A program made the position numbers and the translations under genes. From an uncultured archaeon (lineage in GTDB: Archaea > Asgardarchaeota > Lokiarchaeia > Sigyniarchaeales > SOKP01), in NCBI GenBank assembly GCA_964508365.1, contig CAZDTP010000077.1, positions 1 to 14,661 on the forward strand: DNA of 14,661 bases, read 5' to 3'. Below the pieces are notes generated by a model that was not told the DNA's origin, searched no databases, and worked only from the letters and a program-made list of their open reading frames with translations. Positions 589 through 14,661 of the stretch are shown piece after piece (within the stretch, counting starts at the first letter, position 1; the number at the start of each line of letters is the position of its first letter).

Positions 589-2106
589 TTGTCCGAAGTA
601 TATAAAAAATTAGAAAATATCGTTAAAGAGAAATACATTTCCAATAATCTTTACGTACGACATGCGTATTCAAGAAATGTAGATCTCGTTTTACAAGGTG
701 TACCTGATATAGTAATTAGACCAAAAGATGCTCAAGAAATCTCAGAGATTCTAAAAATTGCAAATGATGAAAACATACCTGTCATACCCCGTGGAGGGGG
801 AGATTGTGAATTTGGTGGTAGTAAACCTATTGGTGATGGCGGAGTCGTATTGGATACTAAGAGAATGAATAGGATTATTAATTTAGACCAAGATAATCTT
901 ATCGTTACAGTTGAAGCAGGAATATCGTGGGGAAAATTAAATGAATACTTGTGTCATTTTGGATTATATACCGGCTGTATGGGTCCTGGATCTGGCATGA
1001 CTGCAGCAATAGGAGGGGGGATTTCCCATCATTCTGTAGGAGGTGGAGGTTGTGCTAAATATGGTGCTTGTACAAACCAATTAGTCTCTTTAGAAGTTGT
1101 TTTACCAACGGGGGAAATTATAAATACGGGTTCTCAAGCTAATAAGTATTCTAAATATCCTTTTAATAGATTTGGCAATGGTCCAGACTTAGCAGGTCTC
1201 TTTTGTGGTGATAATGGAATTTTTGGAGTGAAAACAAAAGTCTCATTACAGGTATTTTCAAAGCCACCTTTTGCTGCTTACAAAACCTTCCAATTACCAA
1301 GAAAAGAACGAGAAGTTTCAGCTAAAATTTTAACTGAGATAAGACAAAAGGGAATTGATGTCTATGATGCAATGTATTTAATGGATCTAATAGTCAGACT
1401 TGGATGTGAACAGGGGATGTTTCCATTTTGGGAAAATTTAAAAAAGAAAAGAGGTGTCTTTTTTTATACAATAGAAGCGAATTCCGAAGGAGAATTAGAT
1501 GAGAAAGTTAAACAATTAGATGAAATTATGCTAAATAATAAAACAGAAGAATTAGGTCAAGAAATCTCTGACGGAAATATGGCTAAATGGCACTATACTG
1601 AACAAGGACACTGGCAATTTTATCATAATTTATGGGGAATCTATCCGTCAATGCAACCATTAACAGCTGAATGTTTTTCACCAATTAGTTTATATCCTAG
1701 TGTTTTAAATGATATAGATCAATGGGATATCGAAAATAGCGAAGAAATACAAAAAATAATCAATATTACGCAAGTAAGACCAATTGCTGGAAGCGGTCCT
1801 GTTGTTTTAATTGATGGAAATAATGTAGAAATAACTTGTGGCTTTACGAGCTATTGGAAGTATTTTGACGGCAAAAATCACGAAATTATTGAGGAAACTA
1901 ATTTAAAATTATGGAAATCTTTATTAGAAAGAGTAACCAAACATGGAATGCAATGGTACATGATGGGTGACTATATGTCGAGATTGATGGTCGACATGGG
2001 TGCATATTCCGAGCAATATTATAATTTAATGAAATCAATTAAGCAAACATTAGATCCAAAAATGATTTTAAGTAGAGGAAAATTTAATTTTTGGGGTAAA
2101 AGTTAA
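589..2106 (+). CDS. FAD-binding oxidoreductase, FAD_binding_4 plus FAD-oxidase_C (GlcD/LdhA-like), 505 aa
   Basis: N-terminal PDIVIRP...IPVIPRGGG, VVLDTKRMNRII, VTVEAGISW, SLEVVLPTGEI and LFCGDNGIFGVKTK motifs of the PCMH-type FAD domain; C-terminal IKQTLDPKMIL. TTG start with RBS. Confidence 0.92.
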   Translation: MSEVYKKLENIVKEKYISNNLYVRHAYSRNVDLVLQGVPDIVIRPKDAQEISEILKIANDENIPVIPRGGGDCEFGGSKPIGDGGVVLDTKRMNRIINLDQDNLIVTVEAGISWGKLNEYLCHFGLYTGCMGPGSGMTAAIGGGISHHSVGGGGCAKYGACTNQLVSLEVVLPTGEIINTGSQANKYSKYPFNRFGNGPDLAGLFCGDNGIFGVKTKVSLQVFSKPPFAAYKTFQLPRKEREVSAKILTEIRQKGIDVYDAMYLMDLIVRLGCEQGMFPFWENLKKKRGVFFYTIEANSEGELDEKVKQLDEIMLNNKTEELGQEISDGNMAKWHYTEQGHWQFYHNLWGIYPSMQPLTAECFSPISLYPSVLNDIDQWDIENSEEIQKIINITQVRPIAGSGPVVLIDGNNVEITCGFTSYWKYFDGKNHEIIEETNLKLWKSLLERVTKHGMQWYMMGDYMSRLMVDMGAYSEQYYNLMKSIKQTLDPKMILSRGKFNFWGKS

Positions 2107-2332: not shown

Positions 2333-4135
2333 ATGAGTTTCGACCAACCCAAGTTAGAACCTAATAAATCAATTAAAAAAATGGATACAGAGAAATGCGA
2401 TAAGACCGAAATCGCTTCAAAACCAAACCAAAAACCGAACTACAAACCTAAAAACAAAATTGAACGACAAAAGATAGATTTCAAAGAAGAATCAAGAAAT
2501 AAAATTAAACGCGAAAAAATTAACCTGCACACTCCAGCCAAAAACAAAATCGAACGCCCAAAGATAGACATTCATGCACCGTCTAGAAATAAAATAGAAC
2601 CTCGTAAAATAGATCGCAATAAGGCACCTAAAAATGATCTTCAATCTCGATTAATTGACCCTAAATCTCCCCCCAGACATAAAATTGGAAGTCCAAACTT
2701 CATTCCAAATCTTGATAAAGTGAAAAAAGAAATTAAAAATATTGATTGGAAGAATATTTCAAACGACTGGAGCATAACTACGCGTTCTAATCAATACGCT
2801 GAATACAGGAAAATTCTTTTAGATCCTACAAAAAAAGTCTCAAAAGAAAATCCACTTTACAGACATAAAGAATGGTTAAACAACATCTACAATAATAAAA
2901 GATGGAAATTAAATGATAATGATATTGCTAAAATTTGTGGGGTTTATCCAACGGTGATTGGTAAATGGCGAAAAAAGCACCAAATTTCTACAAAATTGCA
3001 AGGAGAAGGAAAGTGGATAGATAACAGAAGTGGAAAAGTTTACGTTCGTGTACCTCGAGATAAAAATAACCCTAGATTAACAGATAACTCAAGAAGTAAG
3101 AGTGTGTATAAATTAGAACATATTCATAACATAGAAGTATATTTATCGCAACATCCTGAACTTGAAATTTCAAAAAAATTATTGGTTGATGGTAAATATT
3201 TGAAACCAGGAGCTGAAGTTCATCACATTAATCAAAATGGGAGGGATAATCGAATAAAGAATCTCTGGATTTATGAAAGCAAGAAAGAACATGCTAAGGG
3301 TGAATTAACCTTATATAATAGTCTGAAAACTCTTGTTAGCACCAATTATATCCGATTTAAAGATGGAAAATATTTTTTAAATCCTGAAATTGATTCACTT
3401 AAAGCTAGAACCTCAGAATTAGGTTTAGAAAGTAAAAACCGAATCAATTATAAAGATATAAATATAGTAAAGGAAGAAATTAAAAAGATTGATTGGAGTT
3501 TAATTTCAAACGACTGGTTGGTACAGGTTAAGAAGAATCAATTCTTACAAAAAGATGTCAAACTCGATCCTACTCGAGACCCTTCGAAGGAAAATCCACT
3601 CTACCAACATAAAGAGTGGTTAAAACACATAATTAACGATAACCGATTCAATCTGACAGATTCGCGATTAGCTAAACTGTGTGGTATTACTAGAGATACA
3701 GCACGATACTGGCGAGACAAAAAATATGACATTAAAGGGAAAACCGAATGGGGTGTTGAAATGAGAGTTGATGATAAAGATGGAAGAATTTGGATAAAGG
3801 TTCCTAAAGACTATGCTAATCCCGTAGTACAAAAAGAGGACCATCATCGTCGATTTATGCTAGAACACAGATACACCATAGAACAGCACCTTGCAAAGCA
3901 TCCAGAACTAGAAATTTCTAGAAAATGTTTGATTGAGGGGAAATATCTAAAAACTGAAGCTCATGTTCATCACATTAATTTGAATTATCAAGATAATCGA
4001 CTAGAAAATTTATGGGTGTTTGAAAATGATAGTAATCATAAAGAGGCAACAAAATCCCTTTACAACCTCGTGGAAAAATTATTAAAATCCAGAAAGATTA
4101 AGTTTAATGAAGGGAACTACCACATTGATATTTAG
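2333..4135 (+). CDS. Free-standing HNH endonuclease-like protein: N-terminal 15-aa repeats plus two tandem HTH+HNH modules (600 aa)
   Basis: Two HNH_3-type motifs, EVHHINQNGRDNRIKNLW (His at 3221) and HVHHINLNYQDNRLENLW (His at 3968), exactly 747 nt apart. Each is preceded by LEH(I/R) and an HTH-like segment (LNDNDIAKICGVYPTVIGKWRKK / LTDSRLAKLCGITRDTARYWRDK). Confidence 0.85.
   Translation: MSFDQPKLEPNKSIKKMDTEKCDKTEIASKPNQKPNYKPKNKIERQKIDFKEESRNKIKREKINLHTPAKNKIERPKIDIHAPSRNKIEPRKIDRNKAPKNDLQSRLIDPKSPPRHKIGSPNFIPNLDKVKKEIKNIDWKNISNDWSITTRSNQYAEYRKILLDPTKKVSKENPLYRHKEWLNNIYNNKRWKLNDNDIAKICGVYPTVIGKWRKKHQISTKLQGEGKWIDNRSGKVYVRVPRDKNNPRLTDNSRSKSVYKLEHIHNIEVYLSQHPELEISKKLLVDGKYLKPGAEVHHINQNGRDNRIKNLWIYESKKEHAKGELTLYNSLKTLVSTNYIRFKDGKYFLNPEIDSLKARTSELGLESKNRINYKDINIVKEEIKKIDWSLISNDWLVQVKKNQFLQKDVKLDPTRDPSKENPLYQHKEWLKHIINDNRFNLTDSRLAKLCGITRDTARYWRDKKYDIKGKTEWGVEMRVDDKDGRIWIKVPKDYANPVVQKEDHHRRFMLEHRYTIEQHLAKHPELEISRKCLIEGKYLKTEAHVHHINLNYQDNRLENLWVFENDSNHKEATKSLYNLVEKLLKSRKIKFNEGNYHIDI
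2450..2719 (+). repeat. Six degenerate in-frame 45-nt (15-aa) tandem repeats in the HNH gene
   Basis: Units start at 2450, 2495, 2540, 2585, 2630 and 2675: KNKIERQKIDFKEES / RNKIKREKINLHTPA / KNKIERPKIDIHAPS / RNKIEPRKIDRNKAP / KNDLQSRLIDPKSPP / RHKIGSPNFIPNLDK. Confidence 0.85.
2720..4132 (+). repeat. Internal duplication of a ~249-aa HTH-HNH module (copy 1 from 2720, copy 2 from 3467)
   Basis: VKKEIKNIDWKNISNDW...LLDPTKKVSKENPLYRHKEWL versus VKEEIKKIDWSLISNDW...KLDPTRDPSKENPLYQHKEWL, with a constant 747-nt offset. Confidence 0.9.
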
Positions 4136-4219: not shown

Positions 4220-5486
4220 ATGAGTGAATTAAAGCATTTAAAGGAAGAATGGAAAGCAATCATGTCGTGTATAAGGTCCTAGATGTCCTAGATTAGACCT
4301 GCGCAGGGGTTGTGGTGATTGTGGGTACGCCATTCGACCAGCAGTTGATAGATATTTAACATGTCCAGTTAAGGAAGCTAAAGGAGAAGAAGGTTTTGAG
4401 ATATATTTTTCTCGAGGAAGGATGAACGTACTGAAAAGTATATTACTAGGACAAATTCCTCTCTCAAGGGAACTTGCTGAATTTGTCTACCAGTGCTCAG
4501 AATGTGGTAACTGTACAGAAGTATGCCATATGTCTCAGAACGAATATATTGTTCTTAACACATCTAAGTGGATAGACCACGTAAAAGTTTGGGAAGCGTT
4601 GCGACAAGATTTGATTGAAGCTGGTTTTGCTCCCCTTGATAAACATAGTAAACTAATAGATTATATGAATGACGATACCATGAGAAATCCTTACGGTGAA
4701 GAAGAAGCTAAGAAATTCGAGTGGATATCTGAATTTCCTGAAATCAAGAATAAAGGTGAATTAGTATTTTTTGGAGGATGCACAATGCCATTAAGACAAG
4801 TAGATACGCTAAAAAGCATGATGAAAATTTTAAAAGCCGCAGGAAAAGATATTGCAATGTCTACAGATGAGTGGTGTTGTGGTTCTGTAGCTATAAGAAT
4901 CGGAGATCAAAGTTCTCTTACTGATATTATTAAACATAACATAGAAATTTTTAAAAACATGGGAGCTAAAACGATATTTACAGCATGTGCGGGATGTTAT
5001 AGGACATGGAAAAAAGATTATCCAGAATTGTTAGGCGAAGAATTGCCGTTTGAAGTGAAACACATAACAGAAATAATAGTTGAAATGCTAAATAACAACG
5101 AGATACCGTTTAAAACCATTGAGGGTTCGGAAACAGTAACCTGGCACGATCCCTGTCATTTAGGGAGGCATATGAATCTTTACGAGATCCCTAGAGAAGC
5201 CTTACTTAAAATACCGGGATTAGAATTAATAGAAATGAAAAGAAATCGCAATAATGCTTGGTGCTGTGGAGCTGGCGGAGGCGTAAAAAGCGAGTTTCCA
5301 GATTTAGCTCTTGACATTTCAAAGGAAAGAATTAATGAGGCAATAGATACGGGAGCGCAAATATTAACTACGAGCTGTCCATTTTGTATCGGTAATTTTA
5401 ACGATGCATATAAAGAAATGGACGCTGAAGTTCGAGAAAAAATTCAAGTAATTGACATAATTGATTTAATAGCTGAAAAAATTTAA
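4220..5486 (+). CDS. (Fe-S)-binding protein, GlcF/HdrD-like (2x4Fe-4S ferredoxin domain plus 2 CCG domains); predicted spliced CDS join(4220..4272,4307..5486), 410 aa
   Basis: ORF 4422..5486 has CSECGNCTEVC, WCCG, TACAGC, WHDPCHLGR, WCCGAGGG and TSCPFC. Its frame continues upstream without a stop to 4275 (GCGDCGYAIRPAVDRYLTCPV). A different frame from ATG 4220 gives MSELKHLKEEWKAIMSC. Removing 34 nt joins the two into CMGCGDC...TCP. Confidence 0.85.
4273..4306 (+). other. Predicted 34-nt bulge-helix-bulge (tRNA-type) mRNA intron
   Basis: Central 4-bp helix GUGU 4267-4270 / GCGC 4301-4304. 3-nt bulges AUA 4271-4273 and AGG 4305-4307. Intron stem AGGUC 4274-4278 / GACCU 4296-4300. Exon stem GUC 4264-4266 / GGU 4308-4310, extended by GCAAUCAU 4256-4263 / GUGAUUGU 4315-4322. 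Cleavage after the 2nd nt of each bulge removes 34 nt and restores the frame. Confidence 0.8.
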
Positions 5487-10347: not shown

Positions 10348-10357
10348 AAATTTTTTT
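10348..10357. terminator. Compact A/T tract between convergent stops, possible bidirectional terminator
   Basis: Only 8 nt separate the amidohydrolase TAA (10345-10347) from the esterase TAA (10356-10358 on -). T7 on + and an A-run giving U5 on -. Confidence 0.4.
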
Positions 10358-12092
10358 ATAATTTAGGTTCTTTAATTCCAAAAGGTATCATCTCATCAAA
10401 ATAGGATAGGATCGTTCCTAGTTCAGGTTCTTTAAGCTCAAAATTAATGAGGTCAATAACACTCTTCACAGTAAGTATATCGTTTAAATAGGAAAACCTT
10501 AAATCATCAATACCAGCATCAAGGACGAGAATTTTGTCTTTTCCTTTAGTATTATCCCAAGGATACCAATTAGGTAAACCTTCTCCGTTTGGATTTCCTG
10601 ATCTTGCAAAATTGGCAAGATAATTCATGCACAAATCTTTTAATTTTTCCCGACCAAGTCGATTACGCTTAGTGTGTGTTTTTCCGATCAGCATAAATAT
10701 GGAACTATTACCCATCCCTAAAAAGAAAGGAATTTCTGAAGCATGATGGGCACCCAAGTTTCGTCCCATCTCTTTAGGGAGAACACTCATGCCATCTTTA
10801 TCGGGGCTTCCCCAATCAAAACGGTAAGCATAAAGGGGTATATCATTCTTTAAATTCATCTTATATGCTAAGGAATCAAGACCACTCACACGCCATAGTA
10901 GAGACCTATAACCCCAAATTAAATCATACTTTCTTGTATTCTTTGGAGGATCTTTTCTAAAATTGCCAAAAAGCTTCAATTCATCTTTCGTGCAACCGAA
11001 AATTAGTGGTACCATATTTGCCCAATCTCCAGATGAAAGTATATCATATCCTTCCTTTGGTATTACCGTACCGTCAGTGAAGATAGCCCGCCAGTTAGCC
11101 ATTCCAAAATCCATTTTGGGGATACATTTCAAAATTTTAAATGCCGATTTTGAACGAAGATACTCATTTACTTCTTTTTCCGACATTTTATCTAGAATTC
11201 TCTCAGCTTCTTCTTGGTTTTTTGCTTTATGATCATTAATGAGGAGATCAATAAGAAGAACTCTACTTTGAGATTCTGCCATGTCAGTACTTGAAATGAG
11301 AGATAATCCGCTTTCAGCAATAGCTTGATGGAAGAATCCTTTTGCGAGCGGAGAAATAAGGAGTGAGAAAACATTAAAAGCACCGCCCGACTCACCTGCA
11401 ATTGTAACATTATTAGGATCCCCTCCAAATGCTTCTACATTGTCTTGTACCCATTCTAAGGCTTTTATCAGATCAAGAGTACCAAAATTTCCACTTTTAT
11501 CTTCAGGAGAACCAGTAGCTGTAGTCGCAGGATGTATAAACCAACCCATTGCTCCAAGACGGTAATTAACTGAGATATACAACAAGTTAGATTTCTCAAC
11601 GACCGCATTACCATAATAGGCAACCTCCGCAGATGAACCAATTGAATTTCCTCCTCCATGGATATAAAAATAGACGGGTAATTTGGTCTCTGGAGTCTTG
11701 GGACGCCAAATGTTAAGATAAAGACAATCTTCTGAACCAATTGAACCTATAAAAGGCATAACTTGGGCTGCAGAATTCCCAAACTTTTTTGTTTTGCAGG
11801 TTCCAATCCATGGGATAGGATCAAGTGGTGCTTTCCAGCGAAGAGAACCAATTGGAGGATTTGCGTACGGAATTCCCTTCCAGCACCAAGATTCTTTATC
11901 GGAAAAACCAGATACTAAACCATACTTCGTTTGGACGATTGCATCATTATTCCATGAACCAAGTTTAAAAATTGTGTCAGATGGTTCTAACGTACAAAAA
12001 TGCCTAATGTAGGGAGACACGATCCTTTTAATCATATTGGTTAATCTAATAAAAGGAGAAAACAAATAAGCTAGCTTTATTATTAAACTCAT
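10356..12092 (-). CDS. Carboxylesterase type B (COesterase, pNB-esterase-like), 578 aa
   Basis: WKGIPYANPPIGSLRW, SEDCLYLNIW, YIHGGG, NYRLG, FGGDPNNVTIAGESGG nucleophile elbow, catalytic Glu region GCTKDE, catalytic His region GAHHASEI. Confidence 0.95.
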   Translation of the reverse strand: MSLIIKLAYLFSPFIRLTNMIKRIVSPYIRHFCTLEPSDTIFKLGSWNNDAIVQTKYGLVSGFSDKESWCWKGIPYANPPIGSLRWKAPLDPIPWIGTCKTKKFGNSAAQVMPFIGSIGSEDCLYLNIWRPKTPETKLPVYFYIHGGGNSIGSSAEVAYYGNAVVEKSNLLYISVNYRLGAMGWFIHPATTATGSPEDKSGNFGTLDLIKALEWVQDNVEAFGGDPNNVTIAGESGGAFNVFSLLISPLAKGFFHQAIAESGLSLISSTDMAESQSRVLLIDLLINDHKAKNQEEAERILDKMSEKEVNEYLRSKSAFKILKCIPKMDFGMANWRAIFTDGTVIPKEGYDILSSGDWANMVPLIFGCTKDELKLFGNFRKDPPKNTRKYDLIWGYRSLLWRVSGLDSLAYKMNLKNDIPLYAYRFDWGSPDKDGMSVLPKEMGRNLGAHHASEIPFFLGMGNSSIFMLIGKTHTKRNRLGREKLKDLCMNYLANFARSGNPNGEGLPNWYPWDNTKGKDKILVLDAGIDDLRFSYLNDILTVKSVIDLINFELKEPELGTILSYFDEMIPFGIKEPKL

Positions 12093-13027: not shown

Positions 13028-13663
13028 ATGACAGAAGATGAGTCGTTAGAAAAATTAAAACAAGCAATTATACAAGGAGATTCACAGAAAGCAATACTTT
13101 TTGTTAATGAATCTAATGAAATGGGAATAGAAGTCAAAGAGATTTTAAATAGAGCAATTCTTAAAGGCGCTGAAGAAGCAGGGAAATTATATGAAGAGGG
13201 TGAATATTTTCTTCCTGATTTATTAATGACTGGTGATGCTATTAATGCTGCTACTGAAATTCTAAAAAGTTCCTTTGATCGAAAATCTGAAATAGAATCT
13301 AAAGGTACTATATTAATTGGAACAGTAGAAGGCGATATTCATGATTTAGGCAAAAGTTTGGTAGTATCATTATTAAAAGGGCAAGGTTTTGATGTTGTTG
13401 ATTTAGGATCTGATGTTCCACCAGAAGAGTTTCTTCGAAAAGCAAAAGAAATAAATCCCAAACTAATAGGATTGAGTGGATTAATGACAATGAGCATCTC
13501 TAAAATGATAGAAACAGTTAATTTACTTAAGAGTGAAAATGTACAATCTCGAATAATCATTGGTGGGGGAATATTATCAAAAGAATCGTGTGAAATGATC
13601 GGAGCAGATGACTTTGCCAAGGATGGATGGGAAGGAGTTAAAAAAATAAATAAATTAATTTGA
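13028..13663 (+). CDS. Corrinoid (cobalamin-binding) protein, MtbC/MttC-like, 211 aa
   Basis: N-terminal cap domain (GAEEAGKLYEEGEYFLPDLL), B12 motif GDIHDLGK, VVDLGSDVP, LIGLSGLM, IIIGGG, GADDFAKD. Confidence 0.95.
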   Translation: MTEDESLEKLKQAIIQGDSQKAILFVNESNEMGIEVKEILNRAILKGAEEAGKLYEEGEYFLPDLLMTGDAINAATEILKSSFDRKSEIESKGTILIGTVEGDIHDLGKSLVVSLLKGQGFDVVDLGSDVPPEEFLRKAKEINPKLIGLSGLMTMSISKMIETVNLLKSENVQSRIIIGGGILSKESCEMIGADDFAKDGWEGVKKINKLI

Positions 13664-13669
13664 ATTCAA

Positions 13670-13675
13670 GAGGTG
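13670..13675 (+). promoter_or_regulatory. Ribosome-binding site GAGGTG for TTG 13686
   Basis: GAGGTG lies 10 nt upstream of TTG 13686, the same spacing as at 573-589. Confidence 0.6.
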
Positions 13676-13685
13676 TAAGAATAAA

Positions 13686-14661
13686 TTGGGAAAAGATTGG
13701 GCCGCTTCTGTAAATAGAATATTTAGAACAATATCAGGATCAAAAAGAGTTGATAAAGTTCCGTTTCTTGCATTCGCCGGGGAACAAATGATTTGCCGAG
13801 TGACCGGAAAAACGGTGAAAGAATTATATAGTTCCCCAAAAGTTTATAGTAACGCTATTATAAGCACTTTTGAGTTTTTAAATACCGATTCAATAAATGT
13901 TCCAAGTGCTTATGCAGGTCCAATTGAAGCTTTAGCATTTGCAGAAGCGAACAACAAATTGGATGCAATTAAATGGTTTGAATATAAACCTCTAATGTGT
14001 AAACAAGGAGTAATTTGCAAAACTGAAGAAGATATTGATAAACTGGAAATTCCAGATCATAGTAAGAATGATCTTTGGAAAACTTCCTTTCTAACTGCAA
14101 AAATGATTAATGATAAAACTAAATTCCCTCAAGTAATCAGCTTGAGTATTTGGTCCGTTGTTCAGGAGTTACGTGGCATAGATGCCTATAAGGACATGCG
14201 CCGAAATCCTGATTTATTATTAAAACTGTGCGAAAAAATATATGAATCTCAAATGGATGTTTATGAGAATTGGCTTGAAATTGTAGGCATGCCTCCCAAT
14301 GTTTTTATTGCAGGATACGCATTTAACCGTCACATGATGAGTTTTCAAGATTCTATGCGCTATGAAGGTCAGTTTATTAAGAGGATGATGAATAAAATAA
14401 AAGTTCCGTTCATGCTTCATAATTGTGGAACTTCACCGTATTTCACAGAAGTCGTTAAGGAAATTGACTTCATTGCCGTGAATGGTAGTCATCCGTTAGA
14501 TATTGAATATTGGATTGATTTTAAAAAGAAACATCCAAAAATCGCAATAATAGGGGCTAATATTGATGTGAGTCGAGAAATGTTCTGGGGATCTCCTTCT
14601 GATGTCGAAAAAAAGGTAAAAGAAAACATCTTAAACTTAGCTCCTGGGGGTAGATATATTT
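13686..14661 (+). CDS. Uroporphyrinogen decarboxylase / MtaA-CmuA methylcobamide methyltransferase family protein; 3'-truncated, absent from the ORF track
   Basis: My translation is open from TTG 13686 to the window end: MGKDWAASVNRIFRTISGSKRVDKVPFL...ELRGIDAYKDMRRNPD...FMLHNCG...IIGANIDV...GSPSDVEKKVKENILNLAPGGRYI. It carries HxCG and G(A)NID motifs and follows a corrinoid gene. Confidence 0.88.
   Translation, partial: MGKDWAASVNRIFRTISGSKRVDKVPFLAFAGEQMICRVTGKTVKELYSSPKVYSNAIISTFEFLNTDSINVPSAYAGPIEALAFAEANNKLDAIKWFEYKPLMCKQGVICKTEEDIDKLEIPDHSKNDLWKTSFLTAKMINDKTKFPQVISLSIWSVVQELRGIDAYKDMRRNPDLLLKLCEKIYESQMDVYENWLEIVGMPPNVFIAGYAFNRHMMSFQDSMRYEGQFIKRMMNKIKVPFMLHNCGTSPYFTEVVKEIDFIAVNGSHPLDIEYWIDFKKKHPKIAIIGANIDVSREMFWGSPSDVEKKVKENILNLAPGGRYI

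Follow-up and report, generated by a model that had tools for sequence, protein, structure and literature searches.

The stretch of DNA analysed here (the window, 14,661 nucleotides) is the entire contig C77 of a 4.07-Mb genome, assigned by database names to the Loki-type Asgard archaea (Promethearchaeota), which comprises 149 contigs and is 100% complete. Its plus strand carries a gene for an iron-sulphur (Fe-S) protein resembling GlcF and HdrD, interrupted near its start by 34 nucleotides (nt), 4273-4306, that form a candidate bulge-helix-bulge (BHB) intron. Reading from ATG 4220 gives MSELKHLKEEWKAIMSCIRS, ended by TAG 4280-4282 within the insert. A second frame, GCGDCGYAIRPAVDRYLTCP..., opens at 4308 and contains a Fer4_8 dicluster match and two CCG domains, with no ATG, GTG or TTG before ATG 4422. 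A first-pass annotation of this DNA had described both frames and the intervening TAG, all of which we found at the positions it gave, and had counted 17 G+C among the 34 nt (50%), a figure confirmed here against 31.8% for the genome. It had also claimed that excision by the rule for the archaeal splicing endonuclease repairs the gene. Removal of 4273-4306 does restore the CxxCxxC motif, as C-M-G-C-G-D-C, in one GlcF/HdrD-like open reading frame (ORF) of 410 amino acids (aa) with the predicted N-terminus MSELKHLKEEWKAIMSCMGCGDCG....

The 5′ exon (4220-4272) consists of 17 codons beginning with ATG (MSELKHLKEEWKAIMSC) plus AT, the first two bases of a split Met codon. The 3′ exon (4307-5486) supplies the G of that ATG, 392 codons (GCGDCG...) encoding the Fer4_8 and two CCG domains, and a stop at 5484-5486. 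In RNA, the predicted spliced junction joins ...AUGUCGUGUAU to GGGUUGUGG..., the flanking letters being given also as ...ATGTCGTGTAT and GGGTTGTGGTGAT.... The NCBIfam models nearest to the protein are TfrB, LdhH and GlcF, each of which scored below its own cut-off. Two paralogues of the Fe-S gene are present in the genome and both are insert-free. The intron sequence is single copy: no further copies of it were found in the genome, so that by sequence it does not qualify as a repeat element.

A BHB motif consists of two 3-nt bulges on opposite strands with a 4-bp helix between them, and an intron-side helix (h′) of at least 2-4 bp. The exon-side helix (h) is required for the strict motif and dispensable for the relaxed motifs cut by (alpha-beta)2 enzymes. 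On each strand, the archaeal splicing endonuclease, EndA, cleaves between the second and third bulge bases. In the window, the central helix (H) is formed by GUGU at 4267-4270, which comprises the wobble base of a Ser codon and the following Cys codon, and GCGC at 4301-4304 within the intron, through the pairs G-C, U-G, G-C and U-G. The 5′ bulge is AUA (4271-4273, predicted cut after 4272) and the 3′ bulge is AGG (4305-4307, predicted cut after 4306). Between them, the intron hairpin h′ (4274-4300) has a stem of 4274-4278 with 4296-4300 (AGGUC/GACCU), an inner CUAG/CUAG extension and a loop; this helix is 5 bp long in the window and 5-10 bp in relatives. On the exon side, GUC at 4264-4266 pairs with GGU at 4308-4310 (C-G, U-G, G-U), and a distal helix of 8 bp between 4256-4263 (GCAAUCAU) and 4315-4322 (GUGAUUGU) is present in the minimum-energy fold. 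That fold, calculated for 4250-4330, reproduces essentially the structure named in the first reading, where it was said to contain every element of hBHBh′. All of the named pairs do exist, but the exon helix amounts to 2-3 bp and the distal helix lacks real covariation, so that this description was a little too generous. Judged by its pairing, the motif follows the strict form on its intron side, and the exon side is relaxed. The intron also contains a perfect 9-nt tandem duplication, GTCCTAGAT GTCCTAGAT, at 4276-4284 and 4285-4293. Relatives of the same intron type (G029, G105) are 29-30 nt long as against 34 nt in the window, and the duplication suggests growth in length by slippage.

The boundaries of the insert are defined by comparison with orthologues. 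Within the genus, orthologues of the 3′ exon (71-91% identity) were identified and the upstream DNA was read for each of 31 loci. Nineteen are insert-free, and 12 carry an insert at the identical nucleotide, either single (8 loci, 29-34 nt) or double (4 loci, 56-61 nt). Pattern searches were extended to the family, covering 135 genomes of 13 genera and 84 orthologous loci, and returned 55 insert-free loci, 23 single inserts and 6 double inserts, again all at the same nucleotide. The insert-bearing loci belong to 29 genomes and 7 of the 13 genera. A pattern scan of metagenome contigs added 24 insert-bearing loci with the same site, and near-identical copies of the 34-mer of the window occur in independent metagenome contigs (L077, L074). 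Two more distant orthologues, from other families of the order, are insert-free. Exactly at the predicted junction, the insert-free loci read TGY ATG GGN TGY GGN GAY TGY (C-M-G-C-G-D-C). The expectation that intronless orthologues would read CMGCGDC contiguously was thus borne out by 19 of the 31 genus loci and by 55 of the 84 family loci. Since these orthologues set the boundaries of the insert, there is no free choice of register for the pairing described above. The inserts fall into at least five sequence types, and their presence varies within one genus. Two NCBI proteins, P0087 and P0089, are 100% identical over 393 aa; one of them is 411 aa long with the full N-terminus, and the other is labelled partial and begins at GCGDCG. 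This pair may represent presence and absence of the insert between near-identical strains.

We evaluated covariation in an alignment (A2) of 22 distinct single inserts, each flanked by 20 nt of exon at either end, in which H corresponds to columns 15-18 with 49-52. All 22 keep the geometry of two bulges about a 4-bp helix, with H paired in 97.7% of cells and the intron stem in 89%. The first pair of H, between the Ser wobble base and the last H base of the intron, is found as U-A, U-G, G-U, C-G and G-C, and in the intron stem all five pairs have changes on both sides. The covariation score was 0.512 as compared to a mean of 0.246 for shuffles, none of which (0/500) reached the observed value, and sliding the partners by 1-3 columns gave at most 0.13. 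RNAalifold, unprompted, recovers H, the 3-nt bulge and h′. Every one of the 22 aligned single inserts has AUA as its 5′ bulge, as do the other inserts listed; the 3′ bulge, AGG in the window, is AAG, AUG, UUG or UGG in relatives. In the exon helix, C-G and U-G alone are general, with TC contributed by the Ser codon and GG by the Gly codon. For the distal 8-bp helix, 85% of cells in relatives are paired, and covariation is almost absent. When shuffled or random 34-mers were placed at the site, H and a 5-bp stem formed in register in about 5 per 10,000 (p ~5e-4), as against all 22 of the distinct orthologous inserts.

The double inserts of the genus lie at L025:1790-1850 (G019), L022:2681-2741 (G030), L040:329-389 (G061) and L009:2678-2733 (G004). 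In each, an outer intron of 30 nt with the 3′ end GC(A/G)G AA precedes 26-31 more nt. These extra nucleotides constitute a second BHB, which overlies the 3′ splice site of the first and uses the latter's H strand and stem arm for helices of its own. The H of the second motif pairs GCAG, the 3′ H strand of the first motif, with CUGC, and in G061 this becomes GCGG/CCGC, a compensatory change. Its bulges are AAA and CUG, UUG or AGG, its hairpin has 6-10 bp, and its outer helix of 4-6 bp pairs the 3′ arm of the outer intron with the 3′ exon. The minimum-energy fold in two species (G030, G061) is this second BHB. A cut behind the second base of each of its bulges would regenerate GCAG AA at the junction with the exonic G, which is an ordinary single-intron substrate. 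The second intron would have to be removed first, or its 3′ cut used directly. The metagenome locus L088 has the outer intron alone, and proteins that are 98-99% identical differ in having one or two inserts.

Coding constraint is evident on both sides of the insert. All insert-bearing loci that reach both ends of the gene have a start codon, the 17-codon exon and, after removal of the insert, an ORF of ~410 aa, without exception. At all insert-bearing loci the 5′ exon is conserved at the protein level. In lineages with the insert, the spliced coding sequence has a dN/dS of 0.088 and the 17 codons of the 5′ exon one of 0.136; purifying selection acts on both exons there. In contrast to the spliced ORF, public gene calls at these loci place the start codon within the insert (MQKGCGDCG..., MEIIRDRRK...) or at the internal Met that yields 354 aa. 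The annotated products are 354 aa or 393-398 aa long, and all have lost the first cluster cysteine. The proteins P0015-P0025, P0034, P0041 and others are called as complete (Fe-S)-binding proteins without that cysteine. Mis-started calls of this kind affect the annotation and metabolic reconstructions of these genomes.

The genome encodes the enzymes that such an intron would require. Two EndA paralogues of ~200 aa each, on contigs C9 and C1, both exceed the TIGR00324 cut-off. The C9 protein is closest to the catalytic subunits of crenarchaeal heterotetramers (3p1z_B, 3ajv_B, 2zyz_B), and the C1 protein is more divergent. A single gene for RtcB is found on C18. Asgard EndA has been described as an (alpha-beta)2 type with a loop that confers broad specificity (PMC5829648), and one-sided relaxation of the motif is consistent with an enzyme of this type. 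In the genome, ARAGORN finds 29 tRNA genes, 17 of which have an intron. This agrees with the heavy interruption reported for Asgard tRNA genes (PMC11291895; bioRxiv 10.64898/2026.10.13.758758).

From these data we consider it very probable that 4273-4306 is an archaeal BHB intron in the pre-mRNA of the GlcF/HdrD-like Fe-S subunit, spliced by the tRNA-splicing enzymes. In the proposed mechanism, GUGU (Ser wobble base and Cys codon) would pair in the transcript with GCGC at the 3′ end of the intron to give the 4-bp central helix, flanked by the AUA and AGG bulges, the covarying intron hairpin and a short exon helix between UC of the Ser codon and GG of the Gly codon. A two-subunit EndA would cut after the second base of each bulge, and RtcB would join ...UGU AU to G GGU..., creating the Met codon and completing the first CxxCxxC...CP motif of the 410-aa protein. 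The structure and its covariation, the agreement of the junction with insert-free loci, the purifying selection and the presence of the enzymes are observed, and from them we infer that cleavage and ligation occur in vivo.

Several observations weigh against this interpretation. As a single sequence, 4250-4330 folds no more stably than its shuffles (z = 0.36). The exon-side helix beside the 3′ bulge is just 2-3 bp, and its bases are fixed by codons, so that covariation cannot test it. Mismatches in H occur in one relative (A.G in G020) and in the first BHB of the G004-type doubles (G.G). A search of metagenome contigs for the exact spliced junction gave 0 hits. The first-pass annotation had further suggested that other BHB-interrupted genes be sought in the genome, and here the motif alone did not separate real hits from decoys. 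The scan was set to H 4/4, h′ 5/5, h 2/2 and an insert length of 16-110, with a parallel-pairing decoy; an identity-pairing decoy was discarded as biased by low-complexity runs. Raw hits numbered 30,987 against 30,438 for the decoy, which is the frequency expected by chance, and filtering for the merging of ORFs left 176 against 144. A further filter for a paralogue matching across the junction brought the counts to 29 against 28 and missed the window's own intron. As the motif alone is non-discriminating, we claim no count of spliced genes for the genome. Because the fold is no better than shuffles and BHB-like motifs occur at chance frequency across the genome, little is proven by the motif alone.

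That last point is also one on which a pseudogene could be argued, in which a 34-bp insertion, for example a product of slippage, folds like a BHB by chance. The tandem GTCCTAGAT repeat inside the insert would suit such an origin, BHB-like motifs are common by chance, and the two paralogues in the genome could cover the function of a lost gene. This explanation is nevertheless close to refuted by the orthologues. The identical site is occupied in 29 genomes and 24 metagenome contigs by inserts that differ in sequence and conserve a covarying pairing, both exons are intact with dN/dS of ~0.09-0.14, and secondary decay is seen at no locus. The first reading had itself named a simple pseudogenising insertion as its rival, and a shared site, a covarying structure, intact ORFs and a dN/dS of 0.09 speak against that. 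It is very unlikely that the insert is instead retained and a shortened protein of 354 aa made from the internal ATG 4422, perhaps together with a separate 20-aa peptide. That ATG is in frame, and public annotations do give products of 354 aa or 393-398 aa; however, initiation at 4422 would leave out the entire first cluster motif (C-x2-C-x2-C...CP), a motif kept in all orthologues and in both paralogues, and the called starts vary by species and fall in the insert by accident (M-Q-K from UGCAGAA). Moreover, 4308-4421 shows conservation at the protein level, and the 17-codon exon evolves under purifying selection, with its start codon always kept.

A ribosome might also bridge the gap during translation, by bypass or frameshift as in phage T4 gene 60. 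A stop codon follows soon after the break, a hairpin lies in the gap, and the gap length of 29-61 nt resembles that of gene 60. Against this, the Met codon is built from AU and G across the gap, which is impossible by hopping, and matched take-off and landing codons are absent at 4270-4275 and 4304-4310. The conserved pairing keeps the exact BHB register with the junction, including the helix between exon and insert end, and the length of the gap varies freely and doubles through insertion of a second BHB; we regard bridging as extremely improbable. The probability of an assembly or sequencing artefact is negligible: the window is the whole 14.7-kb contig of a metagenome-assembled genome, but near-identical 34-nt inserts are present in independent metagenome contigs (L077, L074) and related inserts in 28 other genome assemblies. 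A self-splicing group I or II intron was rejected, as the insert measures 34 nt compared with the hundreds of nt of a ribozyme core and Rfam gave no match in the window.

The distribution of the insert points to repeated change. In a phylogeny of the protein encoded by the 3′ exon, loci with and without the insert are interspersed and 8 changes are needed, at least 5 of them forced even if only strongly supported branches are counted. The 5′ exon departs from this tree. In the window it shares 94% and 88% identity with its counterparts in the insert-bearing G004 and G029, as against 73-80% with its nearest insert-free kin, whereas the remainder of the gene is ~76-93% identical to G004, G029 and insert-free kin alike. 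When G029 is compared with its closest relatives, mismatches peak locally from about -150 to +50 around the site. Co-conversion of the 5′ exon with the intron would produce this pattern, and an old linked polymorphism would give the same one. The Ser codon before the first Cys is TCN in 29/29 insert-bearing genomes and 24/24 metagenome loci, while the 55 insert-free loci have TCN in 32 cases, AGY in 21 and a non-Ser codon in 2. This bias may reflect the need for TC in the exon helix, movement or persistence of the intron as a block with its flanking exon, or both. The same intron types recur across two genera (G013/G022 and G127/G108; G007 and G099/G124), as does the double-intron layout (G004/G019/G030/G061 and G126/G140). 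Intron types common to two genera point to a very old polymorphism or to lateral spread of the intron.

Upstream of the intron-bearing gene lies a GlcD-like FAD-binding subunit (589-2106, plus strand), the usual direct upstream partner of the Fe-S gene, and at insert-free loci glcD is found directly upstream. In the window the two are separated by a free-standing gene for a 600-aa double HNH_3 nuclease (2333-4135, plus strand), which ends 85 nt before the ATG. Its protein has a Lys-rich repetitive N-terminus and, after it, two repeats that both combine a helix-turn-helix-like piece with an HNH_3 motif. Its matches are to phage HNH endonuclease families (PHROGs), and it gave no sequence match to solved structures. 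The gene is single copy in the genome and sporadic in the class, where it occurs in 25 of 160 genomes at varied loci. Within 2 kb upstream of glcF, the HNH family is present at 7 of 29 insert-bearing loci and at none of 55 insert-free loci, in three genera; the probability that all seven fall among insert-bearing loci is ~3e-4, uncorrected and assuming independent loci, which they are not. The gene beside glcF is intact in G000, G007, G061, G108 and G148, carries one TAG in G099 and is a TGA-bearing fragment in G090. In G020, G022 and G030, the gene between glcD and glcF was checked as a candidate nuclease and is an ordinary short-chain dehydrogenase.

This layout led us to consider, as a tentative possibility, that the mini-intron and the double-HNH gene 140 nt upstream of it form a collaborative homing pair. 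If so, the nuclease would cut insert-free glcF in the conserved DNA encoding C-M-G-C-G-D-C, and the BHB intron, by splitting that site, would shield its carrier. Repair of the break would copy the nuclease gene, the 5′ exon and the intron together into new genomes. The intact nuclease, the decayed nuclease, the intron alone and the empty site would then be stages of a homing cycle. Conversion by an insert-free allele that removes both nuclease and intron would give the same layout. Other members of the HNH family neighbour genes for FAD-binding, DsrE, ChsH2-like and hydrolase proteins in which no interruption was seen, so that the nuclease family is not always beside an intron. A cassette that replaces the end of the gene was rejected, as no stranded old 5′ end of the gene lies at 2107-2332, between glcD and the HNH gene. 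If homing were correct, it would give ORF-less archaeal BHB introns an entry at the DNA level into protein genes, in the closest prokaryotic kin of eukaryotes, and the link to the nuclease provides a testable account of the way in which introns so small could spread.

Other features of the window were noted alongside these. The GlcD-like FAD-binding genes are in tandem (3-500 and 589-2106), and the first, which is cut, shares 57% identity with the C-terminus of the second; G061 and several metagenome loci likewise have glcD in tandem ahead of the Fe-S gene. A protein of 578 aa at 10356-12092 (minus strand) matches type-B carboxylesterases (PF00135, E = 1e-88), a family better known from eukaryotes and bacteria than from archaea. 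The region 13028-14660 encodes a corrinoid (B12-binding) protein and, after it, a URO-D/MtaA-like methyltransferase, and looks like a methyl-transfer module.

Taken together, the data describe an ordinary metabolic gene in Asgard archaea whose working protein would depend on the tRNA-splicing machinery, and whose intron appears to have been gained, lost, resized and even doubled within a single genus. The cbf5 pre-mRNA intron of Desulfurococcales and Sulfolobales is reported by Watanabe (2002) and Yokobori (2009, PMC2738675), and non-canonical and nested tRNA introns of Thermoproteales and Asgard archaea are reported by Marck and Grosjean (2003) and others (PMC11291895; bioRxiv 10.64898/2026.10.13.758758). 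In the literature searched, BHB introns in archaeal mRNA are reported from cbf5 of Crenarchaeota, in the coding sequence, and from the 5′ untranslated region of Haloferax HVO_1309 (PMC7714728; PMC2738675), and a study from 2020 gave cbf5 as the sole earlier example (PMC7714728). The suggestion in the first-pass annotation that such an intron in a metabolic Asgard gene may be undescribed holds for the literature searched, in which cbf5 is the lone coding-sequence case (PMC7714728, PMC2738675). A preprint on Asgard tRNA introns does not mention mRNA introns (bioRxiv 10.64898/2026.10.13.758758).

The proposed homing pair can be compared with the collaborative systems of phages, namely F-CphI with the psbA intron of cyanophage S-PM2 (PMC6083498) and T4 mobE with I-TevIII (PMC2790892). 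Common to both are a free-standing HNH gene, here ~140 nt from an ORF-less intron, and a very conserved target sequence. As in phages, the nuclease gene has a sporadic distribution and its state varies from intact to decayed, and the intron is linked to a distinct flanking-exon haplotype. The phage introns are self-splicing group I ribozymes, in contrast to a 34-nt BHB intron that would be spliced by proteins and lies in a cellular chromosome, and for the present locus cleavage of the insert-free allele and protection by the intron are proposed from gene layout.

As a substrate, the predicted intron resembles that of Haloferax volcanii HVO_1309 (PMC7714728) in placing an EndA target in mRNA, outside tRNA and rRNA. 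The HVO_1309 intron differs in lying in an untranslated leader, where the protein is uninterrupted, and in being cleaved by an alpha′2-type enzyme. The predicted intron has the same motif, cut rule, size range and enzymes as the tRNA introns of Thermoproteales and Asgard archaea (PMC11291895; bioRxiv 10.64898/2026.10.13.758758), and both kinds include multiple and nested introns whose order of removal is set by which BHB can form. Unlike those introns, it would be hosted by an mRNA, the exon strands of its helices are codons and its splicing would decide the reading frame.

The cbf5 intron (Yokobori 2009, PMC2738675) is likewise a short, ORF-less BHB insert in a coding sequence (16-44 bp in cbf5, 29-34 here) whose removal is needed for a working protein. 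In both cases a two-subunit EndA tolerating relaxed motifs is present, and presence and absence are patchy among relatives, with precise losses. Splicing of cbf5 has been seen by RT-PCR and in vitro cleavage, whereas splicing here is predicted from sequence. The host genes differ, cbf5 being an RNA-modification (pseudouridine synthase) gene of Crenarchaeota and the present host a metabolic Fe-S subunit of Asgard archaea, where the intron is polymorphic within a genus, occurs in at least five sequence types and can be doubled by a nested second intron. By mechanism, the intron is of the cbf5 kind without being a member of the cbf5 family.

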